64,000 nucleotides of DNA. Origin: an uncultured Cryobacterium sp. (lineage in GTDB: Bacteria; Actinomycetota; Actinomycetes; Actinomycetales; Microbacteriaceae). The notes under the pieces were generated by a model that saw nothing but the letters and a program-made list of their open reading frames with translations, did no database searches and was not told where the DNA came from. Position 1 is the first letter of the stretch. Each line of letters begins with the position of its first letter. The stretch covers positions 273,547-337,546 of the forward strand of contig CAZYYE010000001.1 in NCBI GenBank assembly GCA_964651535.1, written 5' to 3'. Of the stretch, positions 4,060 to 37,179 are shown piece by piece. A program made the position numbers and the translations under genes.

Positions 4060-5418
4060 TCAGGGCAGGAGGCGCGTCGGACCGCGGAACAGGTACGTGG
4101 CTTCGCGCAGGTTCGTAAGGCCCAGCATGAGCATGAGCACGCGCGCGAGCCCCATCCCGAATCCGCCGTGCGGAGGTACTCCGTAGCGGAAGAAGTCGAG
4201 GTAGAAGGAGAGCTCTTCCGGGTCGACGCCCTTCTGGCGCGCCTGAGCTTCGAGCACCTCGACGCGGTGTTCGCGCTGGGCTCCCGTGGAGATCTCGACG
4301 CCGTTCAGAATCAGGTCGTAGCTCTTCGTGAGGCCGGCATCCCCGTCGTGCCGCATGTGATAAAACGGGCGGATGCTCGAGGCGTAGTCGGTGAGGAACA
4401 CGAAGTCGTGCCCGAACTTCTCCTTCACGTATGCCGAAATCTGGCGTTCGCCCTCCGGGTCCATGTCGTCGTCGTGGCGGGGGACCTCGTAACCGCGCTC
4501 CGCCACAATCTTCTTCGCTTCGGCGAGCGGGATGCGCGGGAACGGCGTCGACGGCACGGCGAGTTCGATGCCGAACGCCTCCAGAATCTCGGCGCCGTGT
4601 TTCTCCTTCACCGCGGTGTACCCGGCCACCATGAGGTCTTCGTGCAACCGCATGACGTCTTCGTGACTGTCGATCCAGCTGATCTCCGAGTCGACGCTCG
4701 TGAACTCCGTCGCGTGGCGGCTCGTGAAGCTCGGGTCGGCGCGGAACGCGGGGCCGATCTCGAACACGCGGCCGAATCCGGCAGGCTGCGCCATCTGCTT
4801 GAAGAATTGCGGGCTCTGGGCGAGGTACGCCGTGCCCTCGAAGTACTTCACTTCGAACAGCTCGGCCTTCGACTCGCTCGCGCTCGCCATGAGTTTGGGG
4901 GTGTGGATCTCGACGAAGTCGTGCTCGACCCAATACGTGCGCCAGGCGTGCTCGAGCGTGGTCTGGATTCGGAACACGAGGTGGTGCTTCGGCACGCGCA
5001 GGTCGAGGAAACGCCAGTCCATGCGCTTGTCGACGCCCGTGTCCTCCGCGATCGGCGACTCGAGTGCCTCCGACACGACGTCGATCGAACCGATGAGCAC
5101 CTCGATACCGCCGAGCTTCACGCGCTCGTCGTGCTTGAGGGTGCCCGTGACCGTGATGAACGTGCCCGTGCCGAGCGCGGAGATGGTGTCGGCGATGGGG
5201 TCGGACGCTGCCTGTTGGCTCCCTTCGAGACGGTTGCCTTCGGCAACCTCCTCAGGGAGCGCCGCGCGCGGGTGGACGAGCTGGAGGGCACCGGACTCGT
5301 CGCGCAGTACGACGAACTGCACCTTCTTCTGGTCGCGAACCGTATCCACCCACCCGGAGACAGTCACGGGTCCGTCGGTTCTGGCGGCAAGATTTCTGAT
5401 GAGGGTGCGTTCGGTCAC
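4060..5418 (-). CDS. aspS: Aspartate--tRNA ligase, type 2 (archaeal-like, possibly non-discriminating)
   Basis: 452 aa with an N-terminal OB anticodon-binding region and a class IIb core carrying FEIGPAFRAD and GGFGMGLARVLM motifs. Confidence 0.9.
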   Translation of the reverse strand: MTERTLIRNLAARTDGPVTVSGWVDTVRDQKKVQFVVLRDESGALQLVHPRAALPEEVAEGNRLEGSQQAASDPIADTISALGTGTFITVTGTLKHDERVKLGGIEVLIGSIDVVSEALESPIAEDTGVDKRMDWRFLDLRVPKHHLVFRIQTTLEHAWRTYWVEHDFVEIHTPKLMASASESKAELFEVKYFEGTAYLAQSPQFFKQMAQPAGFGRVFEIGPAFRADPSFTSRHATEFTSVDSEISWIDSHEDVMRLHEDLMVAGYTAVKEKHGAEILEAFGIELAVPSTPFPRIPLAEAKKIVAERGYEVPRHDDDMDPEGERQISAYVKEKFGHDFVFLTDYASSIRPFYHMRHDGDAGLTKSYDLILNGVEISTGAQREHRVEVLEAQARQKGVDPEELSFYLDFFRYGVPPHGGFGMGLARVLMLMLGLTNLREATYLFRGPTRLLP

Positions 5419-5461: not shown

Positions 5462-6106
5462 GTGCCCGCATCGCTCATCCACCTGGTCCGCCACGGGGAG
5501 GTTCACAACCCCGACGGCGTGCTCTACGGACGGTTGCCCGGCTACCACCTTTCCGAGCTCGGCGTGCGGATGGCTGCTGCTGCTGCCGAATCCGTGAAGG
5601 CGGAAGGGCGGCCGGTCGCGAAACTCGTCTCCTCGCCGCTTCAGCGCGCCCAGGAGTCGGCTGAACCCTTCTCCCGCGTGTTCGGGCTCCCCATCGAGAC
5701 GGATGAACGCCTCATCGAACCGACCAACCGATTCGAGGGCAGAACGTTCGAGTTCGGGCCGCAGGTGATCCTGCGTCCGCGGTCATGGCCGTGGGTCGTG
5801 AACCCGTTCCGGCCGAGTTGGGGCGAGGCATACGACTCCATTGCGAGCCGGATGCTCGCGGCGCTCGAGGACGCGTGGAACGGCACTGACAGTGGCGACG
5901 CCGTGCTCGTGAGCCACCAGTTGCCGATTTGGACGCTCACGAACGCGCTCGCCGGCAGGCGCCTCTGGCACGATCCGCGAAAGCGCCGTTGCAGTCTCTC
6001 CAGCATCACGACGTTCGAGCGTCGCGGAGACGAGTTCGTGGAGGTCGCCTACCGAGATCCGGCATCCGACCTTCTCGCTCAGGCTGTGGACTCGGGGGCC
6101 GTGTGA
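5462..6106 (+). CDS. Histidine phosphatase (PGAM-like) family protein
   Basis: N-terminal RHG motif (LVRHGEVHN). It is the usual first gene of actinobacterial ccs clusters. Confidence 0.85.
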   Translation: MPASLIHLVRHGEVHNPDGVLYGRLPGYHLSELGVRMAAAAAESVKAEGRPVAKLVSSPLQRAQESAEPFSRVFGLPIETDERLIEPTNRFEGRTFEFGPQVILRPRSWPWVVNPFRPSWGEAYDSIASRMLAALEDAWNGTDSGDAVLVSHQLPIWTLTNALAGRRLWHDPRKRRCSLSSITTFERRGDEFVEVAYRDPASDLLAQAVDSGAV

Positions 6107-7475: not shown

Positions 7476-9111
7476 CCACGTCGAGGGTTCGGGACCGCCC
7501 GTGCGCCCCAACCCCAACATCACGCAGCCGCGACTGAATTTTTCCGGGTACGTGCGGTTCTTCTGGCGCCAGCTCACGAGCATGCGCACCGCGATCGTGC
7601 TCCTGCTTCTGCTCGCGGTCGCCGCGGTCCCTGGGTCGATGTGGCCGCAACGCAGTTCCGACCCGAACGGCGTGATCCAGTTCTATGCGAACAACCCGCA
7701 GCTCGCACCCGTGCTCGACCGCATCCAATTGTTCGACGTGTACACATCCGTCTGGTTCTCGGCCATCTACCTTCTACTGTTCATTTCGCTCATCGGTTGC
7801 GTGCTCCCGCGAACGCTGCATCACTTTCGCGCTCTTCGCGCGAAGCCGCCGCGCACGCCCGCACGCCTCGAGCGCCTCGCGTCCTTTGAGACGGCAACGC
7901 TCGAACCCGCCGAGGGCGTGGATGCGGCCGCGGCGGTCGAGGCCGCCCGCGTCCAGCTTCGCGCGAGCGGGTACCGGGTGGCGCAGTTTCACGGCGCAAA
8001 GGACCTGTCGGTCTCGGCGGAGCGCGGCTACCTGCGCGAGACCGGAAACCTCGTGTTCCATACCGCCCTCATCGGGATTCTCGTCGCGGTGGGTCTCGGA
8101 GGCGGATTCGGCTACACGGGCCAGAAGGTTCTCGTCGAGGGGCAGTCGTTCGTGAACATCAAGGGGGCCTACGACTCGTTCACGCCCGGGCGGTTCTTCA
8201 CCGACTCGTCCCTGCAGCCGTACCGCCTCACGCTCGACAAGTTCTCCGCAACGTACGAAGAGGAAAGCATCCGAGCGTACGGGCAACCGATCGATTATGT
8301 CGCCGACGTGACCACGTGGTTGCCCAGCGGCCACAGCGCCGAATCGATCATCAAAGTCAACGAACCGCTCGAGTTCTCGGGTACCCACCTCTACCTCCTC
8401 GGCAACGGCTACGCCCCCACGATCACGGTGCGGGACGGCATGGGGAACATCGCCTTCACGGCATCCGTTCCGTTCCTTCCGCAGGACTCCAACCTCACAT
8501 CCACGGGGGTCATCCGGGTCCCGGATGCGCTGCCGGAGCAGCTCGCGTTCCTCGGATTCTTCTACCCGACGGCTGCGCAATTGTCCACGGGCGCGCTCAC
8601 GTCGATTCACGCCGACTTGCGCAACCCCGTGCTCACGCTGTTCGCCTACAAGGGCGACCTTGGCCTCGACAGCGGCATCCCCCAGAACGTGTACGCTCTC
8701 GACCCGAAAGACCTCACCCAGATCGCCGGCGGCGACAGCGGCATCGACGCGCTCGAGTTGCGGCCGGGCCAAACGGTCGATCTGCCGGACGGGCTCGGCT
8801 CGGTGACGTTCGAGAGCGCATCGCCGGATGCCGCCGAGGGGGACTGGTCGGGCAGCGTTCCGCGGTTCGCCTCTTTCGACATCCACCACGACCCCGCACA
8901 GGCATGGGTTCTGCTGTTCGCGGTTCTCGCCGTGCTCGGGTTACTCAGTTCGCTGTTCATTCCGCGCCGGCGCGTGTGGGTCAAGGCGCTCGACGAGAAG
9001 GACGGTTCCGTGAGAGTCGAGTACGCGGGGCTCGCCCGCGGTGAGGACCCGGGGCTCGATGCCGCGGTCGCGGCAATCGCGCAGCGCCATGCCGCCGGGC
9101 TGAAGGCTTAG
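7450..9111 (+). CDS. resB: Cytochrome c biogenesis protein ResB/Ccs1
   Basis: FWRQLTSMRTAI N-terminal signature, N-terminal TMs, a large extracytoplasmic domain and a C-terminal TM. The start could instead be GTG 7501. Confidence 0.85.
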   Translation: MELLSRPFDHVEGSGPPVRPNPNITQPRLNFSGYVRFFWRQLTSMRTAIVLLLLLAVAAVPGSMWPQRSSDPNGVIQFYANNPQLAPVLDRIQLFDVYTSVWFSAIYLLLFISLIGCVLPRTLHHFRALRAKPPRTPARLERLASFETATLEPAEGVDAAAAVEAARVQLRASGYRVAQFHGAKDLSVSAERGYLRETGNLVFHTALIGILVAVGLGGGFGYTGQKVLVEGQSFVNIKGAYDSFTPGRFFTDSSLQPYRLTLDKFSATYEEESIRAYGQPIDYVADVTTWLPSGHSAESIIKVNEPLEFSGTHLYLLGNGYAPTITVRDGMGNIAFTASVPFLPQDSNLTSTGVIRVPDALPEQLAFLGFFYPTAAQLSTGALTSIHADLRNPVLTLFAYKGDLGLDSGIPQNVYALDPKDLTQIAGGDSGIDALELRPGQTVDLPDGLGSVTFESASPDAAEGDWSGSVPRFASFDIHHDPAQAWVLLFAVLAVLGLLSSLFIPRRRVWVKALDEKDGSVRVEYAGLARGEDPGLDAAVAAIAQRHAAGLKA

Positions 9112-31531: not shown

Positions 31532-31605
31532 GGCTGGGTAGCTCAGTTGGTGAGAGCGCACGACTCATAATCGTGAGGTCGCGGGTTCGAATCCCGCCCC
31601 AGCTA
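31532..31605 (+). tRNA. tRNA-Met (CAT), elongator type; integration target
   Basis: Acceptor GGCTGGG/CCCAGCT, anticodon loop CTCATAA, T-arm GCGGG-TTCGAAT-CCCGC. Its 3' 42 nt are duplicated at 36157. Confidence 0.9.
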
Positions 31606-31607
31606 CA
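31564..31607 (+). repeat. attL: 44-bp direct repeat (anticodon loop to 3' end of tRNA-Met)
   Basis: CTCATAATCGTGAGGTCGCGGGTTCGAATCCCGCCCCAGCTACA is identical to 36157-36200. Confidence 0.85.
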
Positions 31608-32607
31608 GATCAGAAAGCCCGAGAATCCGGAGTTTTGCCGCCTTCTCACCCCCCTCGAAAGTGACCTCACGATTCGAGGGGTTCATCTTTTCTCGGATGG
31701 CCAACGCCGCATCGGTTGACGACGAGCGCGTATAAAGCTCAGTTGTCGAGATGGAGGCATGGCCGGCTACCCGCTGAATGTTCTGGGGCGAGTTCCCGGC
31801 ACGAGCCAGCCGCGTAAGGAACGTGTGCCGCAGATCATGAAAGCGCAAAGCTCTACCGTCCGCGAATGTGGCGATTCCGTCGCGTATCTTCTCCCACTTC
31901 ACAGCGCGGGAAAGGTTGCCACTATCGAACGGGCCGCCACGCACGCCAGTAAAGACGTGCTCGAAACCCGCTTGCTGCGCCAGCTCGAGCCACGGCATGA
32001 GTTCATTGAGAATTGGCACGCTGCGGATGCGGCCGCTTTTGGTGGCGCGAATCTCGAGCTTGCCGTGACCGTTGGGCGAGAACGTGCGCCGCACCGTTAT
32101 GAGGCCCTGCCCTGCATCCACATCCTCCCAACGAAGGCCGACCAGCTCACCGAGCCGCAGACCAGTGAAGGCAAGCCCGGCAAGAGCACGCTGCCCGAAC
32201 GGGTGAAAGGCGGTGAGGGTAAGCATGCGAGCGACCTGTACATCACTGAGGGCGCGGCTAGCAGGGTCAGCATCGTGATTCTTGCCACGCGACCGAGGGA
32301 GCGAACGGCAGGGGTTCGAACCGATGCGGCCATCCATCACCGCAAGCTCGAGCAGACGCGAAAGCAGGGCGAGAGCATCCTGTTTGGTCGATGCGCTCCC
32401 ATCCCATGCAGCACGAGCGCGGGAAATGACGAGGGCCGTTAGCCCAGAAAGGGGCAGGCTCCCCAGTGAAGGTCGCACACGTAGCCGCCAGGCACGCTCA
32501 TAGGCCGCGACAGCATTAGAGACCAAGCCTTCCTCGACCAGCGCGTGATTCTCGTCGTAGAAATCGGCAAGCGTCACCCCCGCACGATCGTCGGTCATTA
32601 GTCTCAT
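31603..32607 (-). CDS. Tyrosine-type site-specific integrase
   Basis: Catalytic residues in context: LRLGELVGLRWEDV (Arg), HDLRHTFLTRLA (His-x-x-Arg), GHASISTTELYTR (His, Tyr). Its stop codon lies inside attL. Confidence 0.9.
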   Translation of the reverse strand: MRLMTDDRAGVTLADFYDENHALVEEGLVSNAVAAYERAWRLRVRPSLGSLPLSGLTALVISRARAAWDGSASTKQDALALLSRLLELAVMDGRIGSNPCRSLPRSRGKNHDADPASRALSDVQVARMLTLTAFHPFGQRALAGLAFTGLRLGELVGLRWEDVDAGQGLITVRRTFSPNGHGKLEIRATKSGRIRSVPILNELMPWLELAQQAGFEHVFTGVRGGPFDSGNLSRAVKWEKIRDGIATFADGRALRFHDLRHTFLTRLARAGNSPQNIQRVAGHASISTTELYTRSSSTDAALAIREKMNPSNREVTFEGGEKAAKLRILGLSDL

Positions 32608-32652
32608 AGTCCGAGACTAAAGGACTACACGAGTTAGTGCAACACTTTGCGA

Positions 32653-33045
32653 CTAGCCCTTTTCTTGGCGCTCCGCCATTCCCTTCACGAATGCGGCAAC
32701 ATCGACCTTTAGGCCAGGGAACTCGTAGATGTCGGGGTGCTCTCCAAAGACGCCTCGGAACTGAGAAACTCGTCGGTAAACGCTTGATCTGCTCATGCCG
32801 AGGTTCTTCTGCATCCCTTCAAAACCGCCCACCAGTCGCCACATCACCCAGAATCCAACTAGGTCGAACAATGTGGAGTTGACGTAGCCGCGCATGAGTG
32901 TTTTTAGGCCGGGGAAGGCCGAGAGAAGCGGCTCGTTGACGGACTTGTTCGCGGCGTAGTACGTGTCCCACGCTGATTCGAGGGCGCTCTTCGCCCGACC
33001 TTCACCCTCTGGTGATGGCATTCGATCCGCTCTAAAGTCCGCCAT
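32653..33045 (-). CDS. Hypothetical HTH protein (candidate element regulator or recombination directionality factor)
   Basis: 130 aa with a C-terminal HTH-like GMSRSSVYRRVSQFRGVFG. It sits between the effector and int. I do not recognise the family. Confidence 0.5.
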   Translation of the reverse strand: MADFRADRMPSPEGEGRAKSALESAWDTYYAANKSVNEPLLSAFPGLKTLMRGYVNSTLFDLVGFWVMWRLVGGFEGMQKNLGMSRSSVYRRVSQFRGVFGEHPDIYEFPGLKVDVAAFVKGMAERQEKG

Positions 33046-33168
33046 GACGCCTCATCTCGTAGTTCAACTATCTGAGACTACAAGACTAAGGCTTTGCGCC
33101 GTCATGACGCTACCTAAGCCAACTCTCCCGAAATCCTCTATACAAGATCAAGAGATCTCCCTGATCGC

Positions 33169-33678
33169 TCAGAGGAAACTGTCAATAACGACAGCCAGTG
33201 TGCACGCAAATGATGCCAAGGCGATCATCCAAAGGCCAAGCTGGATACCTCGATACTTCCGATCGACGATTCCGGAGATGATCTTTAGCTGATCGAATAC
33301 CCGAGCATCGATCCCCTTCGACGTGCGGATCAGGTTGGCCTCGAGCCGGTTGGCTGGCGTAGCTACGACATCTCCAAAGTAAGCGATGATCGCAGGTACC
33401 CGCTCGCCCCTGTATGCAGTGCGCGGGTACACGGAGTAAGCAAATGCGACGATTGCGCCAACGCCGCTGGCGCTACCTACCCACCAAAGCCATTGCACGC
33501 ACGCCATGAGATCGAATGGAGTCCAGTCACCGGCGACAATAGCGGCGACGATTGCGCCAAGCGCTACCCCCGCTGCAGCAAGCAACAGGGACGACTTACC
33601 GTCGGCTCGGGCAAGTTCCTCACGAGCCTCGCGCAGGATCGTCTCAGCAAGAACGATGTGACGTTTCGACTTGGACAT
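33169..33678 (-). CDS. Small three-TM protein resembling Pycsar TM effector (formerly DUF5706)
   Basis: 169 aa with an N-terminal helix ending in ELARADGKSSLLL that runs into TM1, plus two further hydrophobic helices. Its start overlaps the cyclase stop by 1 nt (TAATG). Confidence 0.6.
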   Translation of the reverse strand: MSKSKRHIVLAETILREAREELARADGKSSLLLAAAGVALGAIVAAIVAGDWTPFDLMACVQWLWWVGSASGVGAIVAFAYSVYPRTAYRGERVPAIIAYFGDVVATPANRLEANLIRTSKGIDARVFDQLKIISGIVDRKYRGIQLGLWMIALASFACTLAVVIDSFL

Positions 33679-34619
33679 TACTTGAGAAGTTCCTCAATCA
33701 GGGACAGATGCTCCGCCTTCCACTCGACGCGCGCTAAGTCTCGTCGCTTGCGCGCGTCTTGCTTCTCAACCGAACCAAAAGAAAGCAAATTTCGTTCACT
33801 ACGCACAGACTGTGGGATGTCGTCGCGCTTGGTCTTGCCGTCTAAGATTGCCTGGCAAAAGTCCTCACCGTGATTCACGCACCACTTGGTCTCAAGGGAC
33901 TTACCGTACATCTCGTCATCCGGGATCTTCTCAATGTCGTAGTCGTGCCACAAAAGGGTGGGCCCCGAGTTGCAGCCGCATGAGAATGCTATGTAGTCGT
34001 TGTCTTCGATCGCGTCCCAAACGCTGGCCGTAACCAGTAGCGCGTCAGGTTCAGTTTGCTGGGCTGCCTTTGCGGCATAGTTAACGGGGCGTCCGGCCCA
34101 CACGGGTTCTTGCAGTTCGAGGTGGCGAGGAAGCCCCACGCGTTTCACAAGCACCGGCCCGCTCGCAACGGCAACCTTGAAGCCGGTTTTAGGTGACTCG
34201 GTCCACTTGGCCAGGAGTTGGGTCGCGAAATCATCACTGAAAGAACGGGTAGTGATGGCAGCTGCCATCGCTCGCTCGTATCGACGGTCGCCCCAAAAGA
34301 GTGCGAATCCGCCGTCGCCCTGAATGTCGACGAAATCTGCATCGAAAGTCTCGAAAATTACGACGACTCCACCAACCCCGGCGTCATAGATGCTTGCGAC
34401 GCTGCGCGGATTCTTTCCCTTGGCGAGATTTGTAGATGATTTCAAATCGACCATCACAGCGACTACATCAGAAAGCCGATGCCACTCGTCGCCGATTTTG
34501 AGATTACCAATGTCGAAGTTTCCGTCCTTGCTGATGACCTTTGGCATCAACTCAAACTTCTTCTTTGTGCGAGCGGACAAGTTGTCCAATGTTTCAAACA
34601 GCGCGGTAGTCATGGCCAT
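33678..34619 (-). CDS. Class III nucleotide cyclase domain protein (Pycsar PycC-like) with C-terminal extension
   Basis: Motifs in canonical order: VAVMVDLKSST (metal Asp), DIQGDGGFALF (second Asp), VAVASGPVLVKRVG, VWAGRPVNYAAKAAQ, LLVTASVWD. The second ATG at 34613 has better SD spacing (GGAG-N6). Confidence 0.7.
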   Translation of the reverse strand: MAMTTALFETLDNLSARTKKKFELMPKVISKDGNFDIGNLKIGDEWHRLSDVVAVMVDLKSSTNLAKGKNPRSVASIYDAGVGGVVVIFETFDADFVDIQGDGGFALFWGDRRYERAMAAAITTRSFSDDFATQLLAKWTESPKTGFKVAVASGPVLVKRVGLPRHLELQEPVWAGRPVNYAAKAAQQTEPDALLVTASVWDAIEDNDYIAFSCGCNSGPTLLWHDYDIEKIPDDEMYGKSLETKWCVNHGEDFCQAILDGKTKRDDIPQSVRSERNLLSFGSVEKQDARKRRDLARVEWKAEHLSLIEELLK

Positions 34620-34897: not shown

Positions 34898-35032
34898 TCA
34901 GGCGCAGTACGCGCACAACTCACTACCCAGCGCATCCCGCACCCCGTTAGCCGGAGTTGGGTTACCGCACTTGTCACACGCGCGAAGGCCCATCATTGCG
35001 CACATCTCGCAATCTGGTTCAGCCATGTTCAT
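34898..35032 (-). CDS. 44-aa triple-CxxC (zinc-ribbon-like) miniprotein
   Basis: Hand translation: MNMAEPDCEMCAMMGLRACDKCGNPTPANGVRDALGSELCAYCA. It starts 16 nt after the rep stop and is below the track cutoff. Confidence 0.4.
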   Translation of the reverse strand: MNMAEPDCEMCAMMGLRACDKCGNPTPANGVRDALGSELCAYCA

Positions 35033-36130: not shown

Positions 36131-36156
36131 AACGAGCGACTACTACGGACACACGC

Positions 36157-36200
36157 CTCATAATCGTGAGGTCGCGGGTTCGAATCCCGCCCCAGCTACA
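36157..36200 (+). repeat. attR: second copy of the 44-bp tRNA-Met 3' segment
   Basis: Identical to 31564-31607. It is preceded by element DNA and is not a full tRNA, since there is no 5' half. Confidence 0.85.
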
Positions 36201-36270
36201 CATCGCGGATACGGCCTGCGTGCAGCCGACATTCAGACAACTCACACGAACTCTGACTACTTTGGCGCGC

Positions 36271-37179
36271 ATGGCACGTTCGTCGAGTGCACAGGCTCAG
36301 ACCATCGTCGTGGGCGGCAAACGCATCCACGTAACGAGCCTCGACAAGGTGATGTATCCGTCCACCGGCACCACCAAAGCCGACATTCTCGACTACTACA
36401 CGCGCATCGCCGAGGTGTTCATCCGGTACGCGCACGACCGGCCGGCAACGCGCAAGCGCTGGGTCGACGGGGTGGGGACAGCGCAGAAGCCAGGTGAATT
36501 CTTCTTCCAGAAAGACCTCGGCGAATCCGCGCCGGCATGGGTACAGCGTCGAACCATCAAACACAAAGAGCGCACGAACGAATATCCGCTTGTGAACAAC
36601 GCCGCCACTCTGGCGTGGCTCGCGCAGATCTCCGCTCTCGAAATCCACGTGCCGCAATGGCAGTTCAATCGCCGAGGTGATCCACGAAAACCTGACCGGC
36701 TCGTCCTGGATCTCGACCCCGGCGACGGGATCGGGCTTCCCGAATGTGCGGAAGTCGCCCGAGCCGCGGCGGCGATTCTCGACGACAAGAAAATGGCATG
36801 CTTTCCGGTGACGAGCGGCAGCAAAGGCATCCACCTCTACGCGCCCCTCGACGGAAAGCGCACGTCAGACGAGGTATCCGACATCGCGAATGAACTGGCG
36901 CGAGCGCTCGTCGCTGATCTGCCTGATCTGGTCGTCAGCGACATGAAACGAGCGCTGCGACCCGGCAAAGTCTTCGTGGACTGGAGCCAGAACAGGGCAT
37001 CCAAGACGACCATCGCCCCCTATTCCCTCCGAGGGAGGCTGCGACCCACCGTGGCAGCGCCGCGAACGTGGGCGGAATTGGAGTCGCCGACGCTCGCCCA
37101 ACTCGAATTCGGTGAGGTGCTCGAACGGGCAGAGGGCGGGAACGACCCTCTCGCGTCACTGATTCGAACGTCACCGTGA
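36271..37179 (+). CDS. Stand-alone LigD-type primase-polymerase (NHEJ PolDom-like)
   Basis: 302 aa with KVMYPSTGTTKADILDYY, LVLDLDP and SGSKGIHLY, typical of the LigD polymerase domain. The track ORF start at 36166 runs through attR and was rejected. Confidence 0.85.
   Translation: MARSSSAQAQTIVVGGKRIHVTSLDKVMYPSTGTTKADILDYYTRIAEVFIRYAHDRPATRKRWVDGVGTAQKPGEFFFQKDLGESAPAWVQRRTIKHKERTNEYPLVNNAATLAWLAQISALEIHVPQWQFNRRGDPRKPDRLVLDLDPGDGIGLPECAEVARAAAAILDDKKMACFPVTSGSKGIHLYAPLDGKRTSDEVSDIANELARALVADLPDLVVSDMKRALRPGKVFVDWSQNRASKTTIAPYSLRGRLRPTVAAPRTWAELESPTLAQLEFGEVLERAEGGNDPLASLIRTSP

Follow-up and report, generated by a model that had tools for sequence, protein, structure and literature searches.

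The stretch of DNA analysed here, a 64,000-nt window from an uncultured Cryobacterium sp. (GenBank assembly GCA_964651535.1, contig CAZYYE010000001.1, positions 273,547 to 337,546 of the forward strand), encodes a 313-aa nucleotide cyclase and, immediately behind it on the minus strand, a 169-aa membrane protein. These two genes, termed pycC and pycTM below, very probably make up a functional Pycsar system of the zinc-ribbon type that acts by abortive infection and is carried as the sole cargo of a 4.6-kb element that lies at a tRNA-Met gene and has no transfer genes. A first-pass annotation, made from the sequence alone, had proposed a Pycsar-like cassette of a class III cyclase and an effector with three transmembrane (TM) helices at this locus. 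PADLOC, the sequence search of the PDB, the fold search and the Pfam PycTM family all agreed with that proposal.

To identify the cyclase, its sequence and its predicted fold were compared with known families. Two PADLOC PycC models matched the 313-aa protein, PDLC02369 with E=6e-87 over residues 10-262 and PDLC00763 with E=6.6e-53. In the PDB sequence search, the true matches were to Pycsar cyclases only, namely 8jsz, a ‘uridylate cyclase’ (E=3.4e-32, residues 45-260), and 7r65 (E=7.5e-5). A structural model was then built with AlphaFold2 (AF2) on an alignment of 26 homologues, with a mean pLDDT of 88.4 and a pTM of 0.86. When this model was searched with Foldseek, 8jsz was the first match (E=5e-23, TMt 0.86) and 7r65 the second (TMt 0.87). 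The next matches after these PycC structures were classical class III adenylyl and guanylyl cyclases, at E of about 1e-11 and TMt of 0.72-0.81.

The best match, 8JSZ, is AnPycC of Anabaena sp., a clade D enzyme that makes cyclic UMP (cUMP) and, with AnPycTM as its partner, provides defence in E. coli; the hallmark of clade D is a C-terminal zinc ribbon, for which the AnPycC ligands are C221, C223, C260 and H263 (PMC11224242, through which all statements on clades A-E and the account of Tal et al. 2021 were taken). In the window cyclase, D58 (within VAVMVDLKSST) and D102 (within DIQGDGGFALF) aligned with the catalytic D62 and D106 of AnPycC. Both were invariant in the 26-homologue alignment, as were N180 and K184, the last two within VWAGRPVNYAAKAAQ. 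The class III motifs with two metal-binding Asp that had been read from the letters in the first pass are real and non-random. The four zinc-ribbon ligands were also found: C214, C216, C247 and H250 aligned with those of AnPycC and were invariant in the 26 homologues. Across a wider set of 89 full-length cluster representatives, the same positions were occupied by Cys in 82, Cys in 77, Cys in 86 and His or Cys in 80, respectively. From its sequence, the cyclase is assigned to the zinc-ribbon ‘clade D’ PycC lineage. It would probably also be of the type called ‘Pycsar-2’ in a recent preprint, in which the C-terminal domain of that type is termed an AGS-C sensor domain (10.64898/2026.08.12.744502); an N-terminal helix, a core, a Cys-rich C-terminal domain and a TM effector as partner would fit this type.

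The partner protein was identified with similar consistency. Against the Pfam PycTM family (PF18967), the 169-aa protein scored 40.1 bits, where the gathering cutoff is 27.2, and it matched PADLOC PycTM models with E=6e-15 and 3.8e-13; the search of both proteins against defence models that the first-pass annotation had proposed thus returned PycC (E=6e-87) for one and PycTM (E=6e-15) for the other. PF18967 was present in every homologue recovered (39/39), several of which are named ‘Pycsar system effector family protein’ by NCBI. The most conserved part of the family is a REEL-RAD-K motif (E17, R19, E21, L22, R24, A25, D26 and K28), invariant in 21 PycTM homologues, and W52, W65, W66, G68, P85, Q130 and K141 were invariant in the same set. 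The AF2 model (pLDDT 89) showed long helices at residues 3-48, 59-83 and 123-168, with hydrophobic stretches corresponding to three TM segments. It was a RADxKxS-type helix followed by three hydrophobic helices that had first suggested a Pycsar effector, and the family score, the invariant motif and the model bear this out. Sequence and fold searches of the PDB with PycTM gave chance-level matches only, with no similar solved structure.

The two open reading frames (ORFs), of 313 and 169 aa, are present exactly as first described. Read on the minus strand, their junction is AAGTAATGTCC (in fuller form CTCAAGTAATGTCCAAG), in which the TAA of the cyclase and the ATG of the effector overlap by one base (TAATG), so that pycC and pycTM are translationally coupled. 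A similar arrangement, with a multi-TM ORF of 170-200 aa overlapping or abutting the cyclase stop, was seen at about 14 of 33 related genomic loci that were inspected. The second ATG of the cyclase ORF is preceded by GGAG at 6 nt, and an identical protein is called with 311 aa in public annotation; based on these two observations, the true PycC start is probably at 34613, giving a protein of 311 aa. Comparison with the counterpart genes of a sibling element, L038, gave ratios of non-synonymous to synonymous substitution (dN/dS) of 0.10 for PycC and 0.13 for PycTM. Both genes are under purifying selection, which means that both are functional but is silent on which function they have. Their GC content (54.4% for PycC and 57.5% for PycTM) is below that of RepSA (64.9%) and of the whole window (64.8%).

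The boundaries of the carrier were set by a pair of 53-nt direct repeats (51/53 identical) with a spacing of 4593 nt, which defines an element of 4,593 bp. Six genes, all on the minus strand, fill most of the stretch between these attachment (att) repeats. They include a tyrosine integrase whose translation shows the HDLRH and LYTR catalytic motifs, and a RepSA rolling-circle initiator with HUH (LHVHALV) and YxxK (YLSKALNYVMK) motifs. The pair had earlier been said to ride on a tiny tRNA-integrating replicon, and this description was accurate, with att repeats at tRNA-Met enclosing both the integrase and RepSA. No FtsK or Tra match was found among the element proteins in the Pfam and PHROG scans. 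Because a Tra/FtsK gene is absent, the element is integrative and possibly mobilisable, and not a strict self-transmissible actinomycete integrative and conjugative element (AICE). An Rfam scan of the element returned only tRNAs and the att fragment. The Pycsar pair is the only cargo of the element. The host belongs to Microbacteriaceae; its cardiolipin synthase falls into clusters (90% identity or more) with metagenome-assembled genomes labelled Cryobacterium, Terrimesophilobacter or Micrococcales, while its L11 protein groups with Microbacterium and Curtobacterium.

The sibling element L038, from an ‘Actinomycetales bacterium’ metagenome-assembled genome, has the same gene order and the same Pycsar pair, with one extra ORF of 175 aa. 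It lies at the same tRNA-Thr/tRNA-Met site, where its repeats are 72 nt long and 5,318 nt apart. Between the two elements, the encoded proteins are 74-84% identical (integrase 83%), compared to only 37% for the M23 peptidase and 63% for the inositol monophosphatase encoded in the flanking host DNA. It follows that the element, Pycsar cargo included, has passed between hosts that differ considerably.

The cyclase family, when traced more widely, proved to be small. Among 1.84 billion representatives, 325 clusters (50% identity) were found at E<=1e-3 and 52 at E<=1e-30. Close relatives, at 49-88% identity, came nearly all from Actinomycetota, including Arthrobacter, Paenarthrobacter, Leifsonia, Microbacterium, Cryobacterium, Agromyces and Mycobacterium. 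Thirteen relatives were on plasmids, and neither tblastn against 50,697 phage records nor a pattern scan of IMG/VR detected any in phages. RepSA was beside the related cyclase at 0 of 35 genome loci, and only in the window genome and L038 have RepSA and Pycsar been seen together so far. Since relatives occur beside another integrase and resolvase, on large plasmids and in the chromosome, the Pycsar pair is a portable unit captured by different elements. At L039:5649-9502, for instance, a 71%-identical PycC/PycTM pair directly follows a tRNA-Met gene but belongs to another element, which encodes a 422-aa integrase and a resolvase as well as a 70-aa ORF; here an unrelated integrative element has taken up the cargo at a similar site.

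By analogy with characterised relatives (PMC11224242; 10.64898/2026.08.12.744502), a route from phage infection to arrest of the cell can be proposed. PycC would dimerise head to tail, with D58 and D102 holding two metal ions. Upon phage infection, it would cyclise a pyrimidine nucleoside triphosphate, most likely UTP, to give 3',5'-cUMP. The cyclic nucleotide would then bind the cytosolic face of a PycTM oligomer, at the REEL-RAD-K helix and the TM2-TM3 loop, and the activated PycTM would compromise the membrane, stopping or killing the infected cell before phage release.

Several observations weigh against a Pycsar system of this kind. In a Pfam-A scan, the cyclase gave no match even at E<=1, including to Guanylate_cyc (PF00211), the model that the first-pass annotation had put forward as a check; an NCBIfam scan of the cyclase was likewise without a match. 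The PF00211 miss is due to sequence divergence and not to a missing class III fold, and the class III kinship is visible only through PycC-specific models, PDB sequence matches and fold comparison. At 169 aa, PycTM leaves no room for a canonical cyclic-nucleotide-binding domain. A simple promoter scan of the element gave no promoter-like site, and no experimental report was found on this cyclase or any close relative. Finally, two of the three AnPycC base-pocket residues are changed (to M56 and Q100), and the cyclase has a C-terminal tail of approximately 50 aa where AnPycC has none.

The pocket and the tail bear on which nucleotide is made. A triple mutant of AnPycC showed that F60, K104 and F109 are needed for cUMP synthesis and UTP use, and the three residues are highly conserved within clade D (PMC11224242). 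Their equivalents in the window cyclase are M56, Q100 and F105, respectively, with one of the three kept. F105 was invariant in the 26-homologue alignment and Q100 in the actinobacterial group; position 56 was variable among relatives (V, F, M, A or N). Among the 89 full-length representatives, position 100 was Q in 48 and K in 28. The K-type representatives all had F or Y at position 56 and were almost tail-less at the C-terminus. The Q-type proteins closest to the query had V, A, S or M at position 56 and a tail of 33-45 aa. In the window cyclase, the tail was predicted as two helices, at residues 270-280 and 284-312 (pLDDT 78-89), and G261, R265 and R293 were conserved.

The main live alternative is one of signal: the Q100-type tailed sub-lineage, with the same architecture, may make a nucleotide other than cUMP (cCMP, cGMP or another cyclic nucleotide), with PycTM tuned to it. 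We regard this as unlikely, though it deserves the most weight among the competing explanations. In its favour, the residue that lines the base pocket at -2 from the second metal Asp is Q100 here, K104 in AnPycC and D94 in BcPycC, and D94 has been named among the pyrimidine-selecting residues of BcPycC. The excess of Q over K (48 to 28 among the 89), with the nearest Q-type proteins having exchanged the aromatic residue at position 56 for V, A, S or M, points the same way, and Pycsar-related cyclases are reported to have diversified to cGMP (10.64898/2026.08.12.744502). Against this, cUMP was made by all tested clades A-D (PMC11224242), and both of the nearest solved relatives are cUMP synthases. 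AF3 ligand scoring in the preprint prefers UTP for Pycsar-1, -2 and -3 (10.64898/2026.08.12.744502). Within the cyclase itself, F105, corresponding to AnPycC F109, is invariant, and at the canonical class III position for purine selection (-4 from the metal Asp) the protein has D98, an Asp shared with AnPycC, where the cGMP-making PfPucC has Glu. By comparison with the characterised relatives, cUMP would be the most likely product, if less certain than clade membership suggests. The first-pass annotation had held base specificity to be unpredictable from the sequence. Its caution was justified in that we infer cUMP from relatives, but it went too far in that clade D membership constrains the product more than it implied. 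We know of no enzyme of the Q100-type tailed sub-lineage among those that have been assayed, and the Q100/M56 pocket and the C-terminal tail offer a convenient test of nucleotide specificity and sensing in clade D.

Two other explanations concern the purpose of the pair and not its signal. The pair may serve the element, as an addiction or stabilisation module, as a weapon against competing mobile elements, or through an SpdB3-like ‘spread’ role of the TM protein. This would suit a pair that is all the cargo a very small element carries and that is read in the same direction as repSA, orf130 and int, and PycTM has been classed as ‘pJV1-spdB3 family 3TM’ by Aravind and co-authors. Plasmid pSVH1 depends on its SpdB3 protein, which is toxic in E. 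coli, for intramycelial spread and for pock formation (PMC4447253). However, no TraB/FtsK translocase for Spd partners is encoded in the element, and translational coupling links the TM gene to that of a PycC cyclase, an arrangement known from proven defence systems. To our knowledge, Microbacteriaceae are not mycelial, which also counts against a spread role. Close relatives of the pair are found in unrelated contexts (with another integrase and resolvase, on large plasmids and in the chromosome), so that the pair is a portable unit and does not belong to the RepSA backbone. When PycTM was searched by tblastn against 72,556 plasmids, a collection from which pJV1 (U23762) is absent, the matches were limited to two annotated Pycsar effectors, and no spd gene of Streptomyces was among them. 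A role in the service of the element is accordingly judged improbable. Least credible of all, and very improbable, is that an ordinary housekeeping adenylate/guanylate cyclase lies beside an unrelated membrane protein, or that the locus is a decaying defence relic. Several relatives do carry the NCBI name ‘adenylate/guanylate cyclase domain-containing protein’, but PycC-specific models fit far better than generic ones, with no match to PF00211, and the neighbouring membrane protein is a PycTM. Neither ORF is disrupted, dN/dS is about 0.1 for both, and the pair lies on a mobile element with a GC content below that of the host.

The pair was also compared with known systems. As far as can be judged from sequence, it has every testable Pycsar feature, and is placed in clade D by its ribbon while departing from that clade in the base pocket and the tail. 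The Anabaena system is the best match in both sequence and fold, and likewise consists of two genes, for a cyclase and a PycTM. The window cyclase shares with AnPycC the catalytic Asp pair, the C-x-C...C-x-x-H ribbon, the Phe at F105 (F109) and an N-terminal helix ahead of the core. The two are only about 29% identical when aligned by fold, and the window cyclase has M56 in place of F60, Q100 in place of K104, and the extra C-terminal tail; its host is an actinobacterium and its carrier a mini integrative element. BcPycC (Burkholderia cepacia LK29, 7R65), a clade B cUMP synthase, is similar in fold (TMt 0.87) and in the positions of the catalytic Asp residues, but has no zinc ribbon and is 20% identical, and its Y50, D94 and R97 correspond to M56, Q100 and G103 here. 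The Pucsar systems (PucC with PucTM or PucTIR), a cGMP-making sister branch, also combine a cyclase with a three-TM effector of the ‘pJV1-spdB3 family’, and the EcPucTM protein forms a hexameric membrane cylinder (10.64898/2026.08.12.744502), which is a plausible model for how PycTM might assemble here. Unlike PucC, which was compared from its published description, the window cyclase groups with the zinc-ribbon pyrimidine clade and lacks Glu at the purine-specifying position.

The carrier resembles AICEs in its RepSA initiator, its tyrosine integrase, its use of the 3' end of a tRNA gene as the target and its rep...int gene order. It differs in lacking Tra/FtsK, Spd, Kor and Pra genes and in its size, 4.6 kb compared to an AICE mean of about 17 kb (PMC10201445). 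The description ‘remnant AICE or mobilizable integrating element’ fits it better than AICE. It is well documented that integrated mobile elements carry defence genes, with element means of 17-27 kb in one survey (PMC10201445). The present case is unusual only in its carrier, that is, in the 4.6-kb size and the single-purpose cargo. As an entry in the Pycsar family, the locus is a clean actinobacterial example of the zinc-ribbon lineage. As far as we know, Pycsar has been studied mostly in Proteobacteria, and the clade D example is cyanobacterial.

The carrier is perhaps of more practical interest than the pair, as it apparently integrates and replicates without self-transfer, is common to distant hosts and carries a defence pair only. 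Approximately 400 close homologues of RepSA were found, mainly in Microbacteriaceae, and in all four RepSA contexts that were examined the element had this layout within 4-5 kb and lay at tRNA-Met or tRNA-Phe. Such mini-elements form a populous family in Microbacteriaceae, with members in Salinibacterium, Parafrigoribacterium, Microbacterium and Rathayibacter. The plan, shared with the window, consists of RepSA, a small ORF, the cargo, an ORF of about 133 aa and Int. The cargo slot holds a different single gene in each, encoding proteins of 190, 211, 335 or 361 aa across L042, L043, L045 and L046. Scans of these cargo genes gave no Pfam match and no significant PADLOC match, and the same was true of the extra 175-aa ORF of L038. 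Tentatively, the tra-less RepSA/Int elements of 4-5 kb might be minimal ‘one-slot’ cargo shuttles, in which the slot between repSA and orf130-int is swapped among defence genes; we consider this possible but rather doubtful. If it holds, the genes in the sibling slots would be new anti-phage genes by guilt by location. This variable slot goes beyond what was originally claimed for the locus and is the most promising lead, the sibling slots giving a short, defined list of candidate defence genes in a poorly explored phylum.

Table 1. Features of the Pycsar-carrying element and its relatives (window positions unless a locus is named).
Feature	Position	Strand	Evidence or remark
tRNA-Met (CAT), integration target	31532..31606	+	ARAGORN; Rfam tRNA, 76.5 bits
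attL, left 53-nt repeat, integrase-proximal end, 3' part of tRNA-Met	31559..31611		Repeat search, 96% identical
Tyrosine integrase, 334 aa	31603..32607	-	Pfam Phage_integrase E=2.9e-25; PHROG 1 E=3e-47
130-aa ORF (orf130)	32653..33045	-	Weak HTH_28/HTH_23 matches, E about 0.2
PycTM effector, 169 aa	33169..33678	-	ORF listing; Pfam and PADLOC PycTM
PycTM layout			N-terminal cytosolic helix with REEL-RAD-K; TM helices about 29-50, 60-83 and 146-168
PycC cyclase, 313 aa	33678..34619	-	ORF listing; PADLOC; PDB and fold matches
PycC domain order			N-terminal helix, class III core, Zn ribbon (C214/C216/C247/H250), helical C-terminal tail of about 50 aa
42-aa Cys-rich ORF (MAEPDCEMCAMMGLRACDKCGNPTPANGVRDALGSELCAYCA), three CxxC pairs	34898..35026	-	Just downstream of repSA; read from sequence
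RepSA rolling-circle initiator, 360 aa	35048..36130	-	Pfam RepSA E=1.2e-34 over residues 28-299
attR, right 53-nt repeat, displaced 3' tRNA-Met fragment	36152..36204		Rfam tRNA/tmRNA-end fragment at 36173-36190
Related mini-elements	L042:6001-9613; L043:6001-10039; L045:6001-9949; L046:6001-10181; also L044, L047

The remaining genes of the element are listed in Table 1. The 130-aa ORF is 78% identical to its L038 counterpart, with a dN/dS of 0.06, and an ORF of 133-136 aa lies beside int in every related mini-element, though on the other strand in L042 and L046/L047. From its position, it is a candidate excisionase or regulator of the element. Paired motifs containing TAGTC, GTAGTCCTTTAGTCT and TTAGTCTTGTAGTCT, were noted at 32614-32628 and 33075-33089 on the minus strand, just upstream of int and orf130. 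They could be operators for the helix-turn-helix-like orf130 product, in a pattern that was picked post hoc and for which 6 of 100 shuffles reached two matches. The 42-aa Cys-rich ORF is under the default ORF size cutoff and had no family match in the profile scans. It is 76% identical over 41 aa in L038, small ORFs occupy the same place in L045 and L047, and it is a backbone gene of the element. The 360-aa RepSA protein also matched NCBIfam rep_init_RepSA (E=2.5e-24), far below the equivalog cutoff. In the public NCBI/ENA annotation of the identical genome, RepSA appears only as a 197-aa C-terminal fragment; the deposited annotation probably under-calls repSA.

A circular form of the element was considered on the basis of a 4,609-nt Logan contig (L002), which contains the whole element with a 16-nt terminal overlap, and was rejected. 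The ends of this contig (36186 and 31578) are exact k=31 de Bruijn unitig break points at the 44-nt identical att core, so the contig is an assembly by-product and not evidence of an excised circle. Two other contigs that each consist of one whole mini-element, L044 (4,128 nt) and L047 (4,336 nt), are likewise not to be read as circular replicons.

In L038, two spacer sequences of the element are repeated just outside the att site. One is a 209-nt stretch of the repSA-pycC spacer (1504-1712 and 5499-5707, 92% identical) and the other a 30-nt stretch of the pycTM-orf130 spacer (4113-4142 and 8017-8046, 100% identical), the 30-mer being found in the window at 33124-33152. These outside repeats suggest a decayed second copy or tandem accretion beside the intact element.

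Two of the related Pycsar loci have further neighbours. On the 608-kb plasmid D40 of Curtobacterium sp. MCBD17_040 (NZ_CP126274.1; L041:5033-7246), another annotated adenylate/guanylate cyclase gene comes after PycC and PycTM, which makes this one of the multi-cyclase Pycsar loci to which the preprint refers (10.64898/2026.08.12.744502). At L040:1888-3966, a 69%-identical Pycsar pair adjoins an opposite-strand gene for a 692-aa NERD and UvrD-helicase protein, in a defence-island-like setting.

In the window, the gene for a stand-alone LigD primase-polymerase (Pfam E=1.5e-82) at 36166-37179 on the plus strand starts right at attR. Its longest ORF begins inside the att repeat, and public gene calls give 302 aa. 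The gene is probably chromosomal, with a role in non-homologous end joining, although Prim-Pol genes also serve AICE replication.

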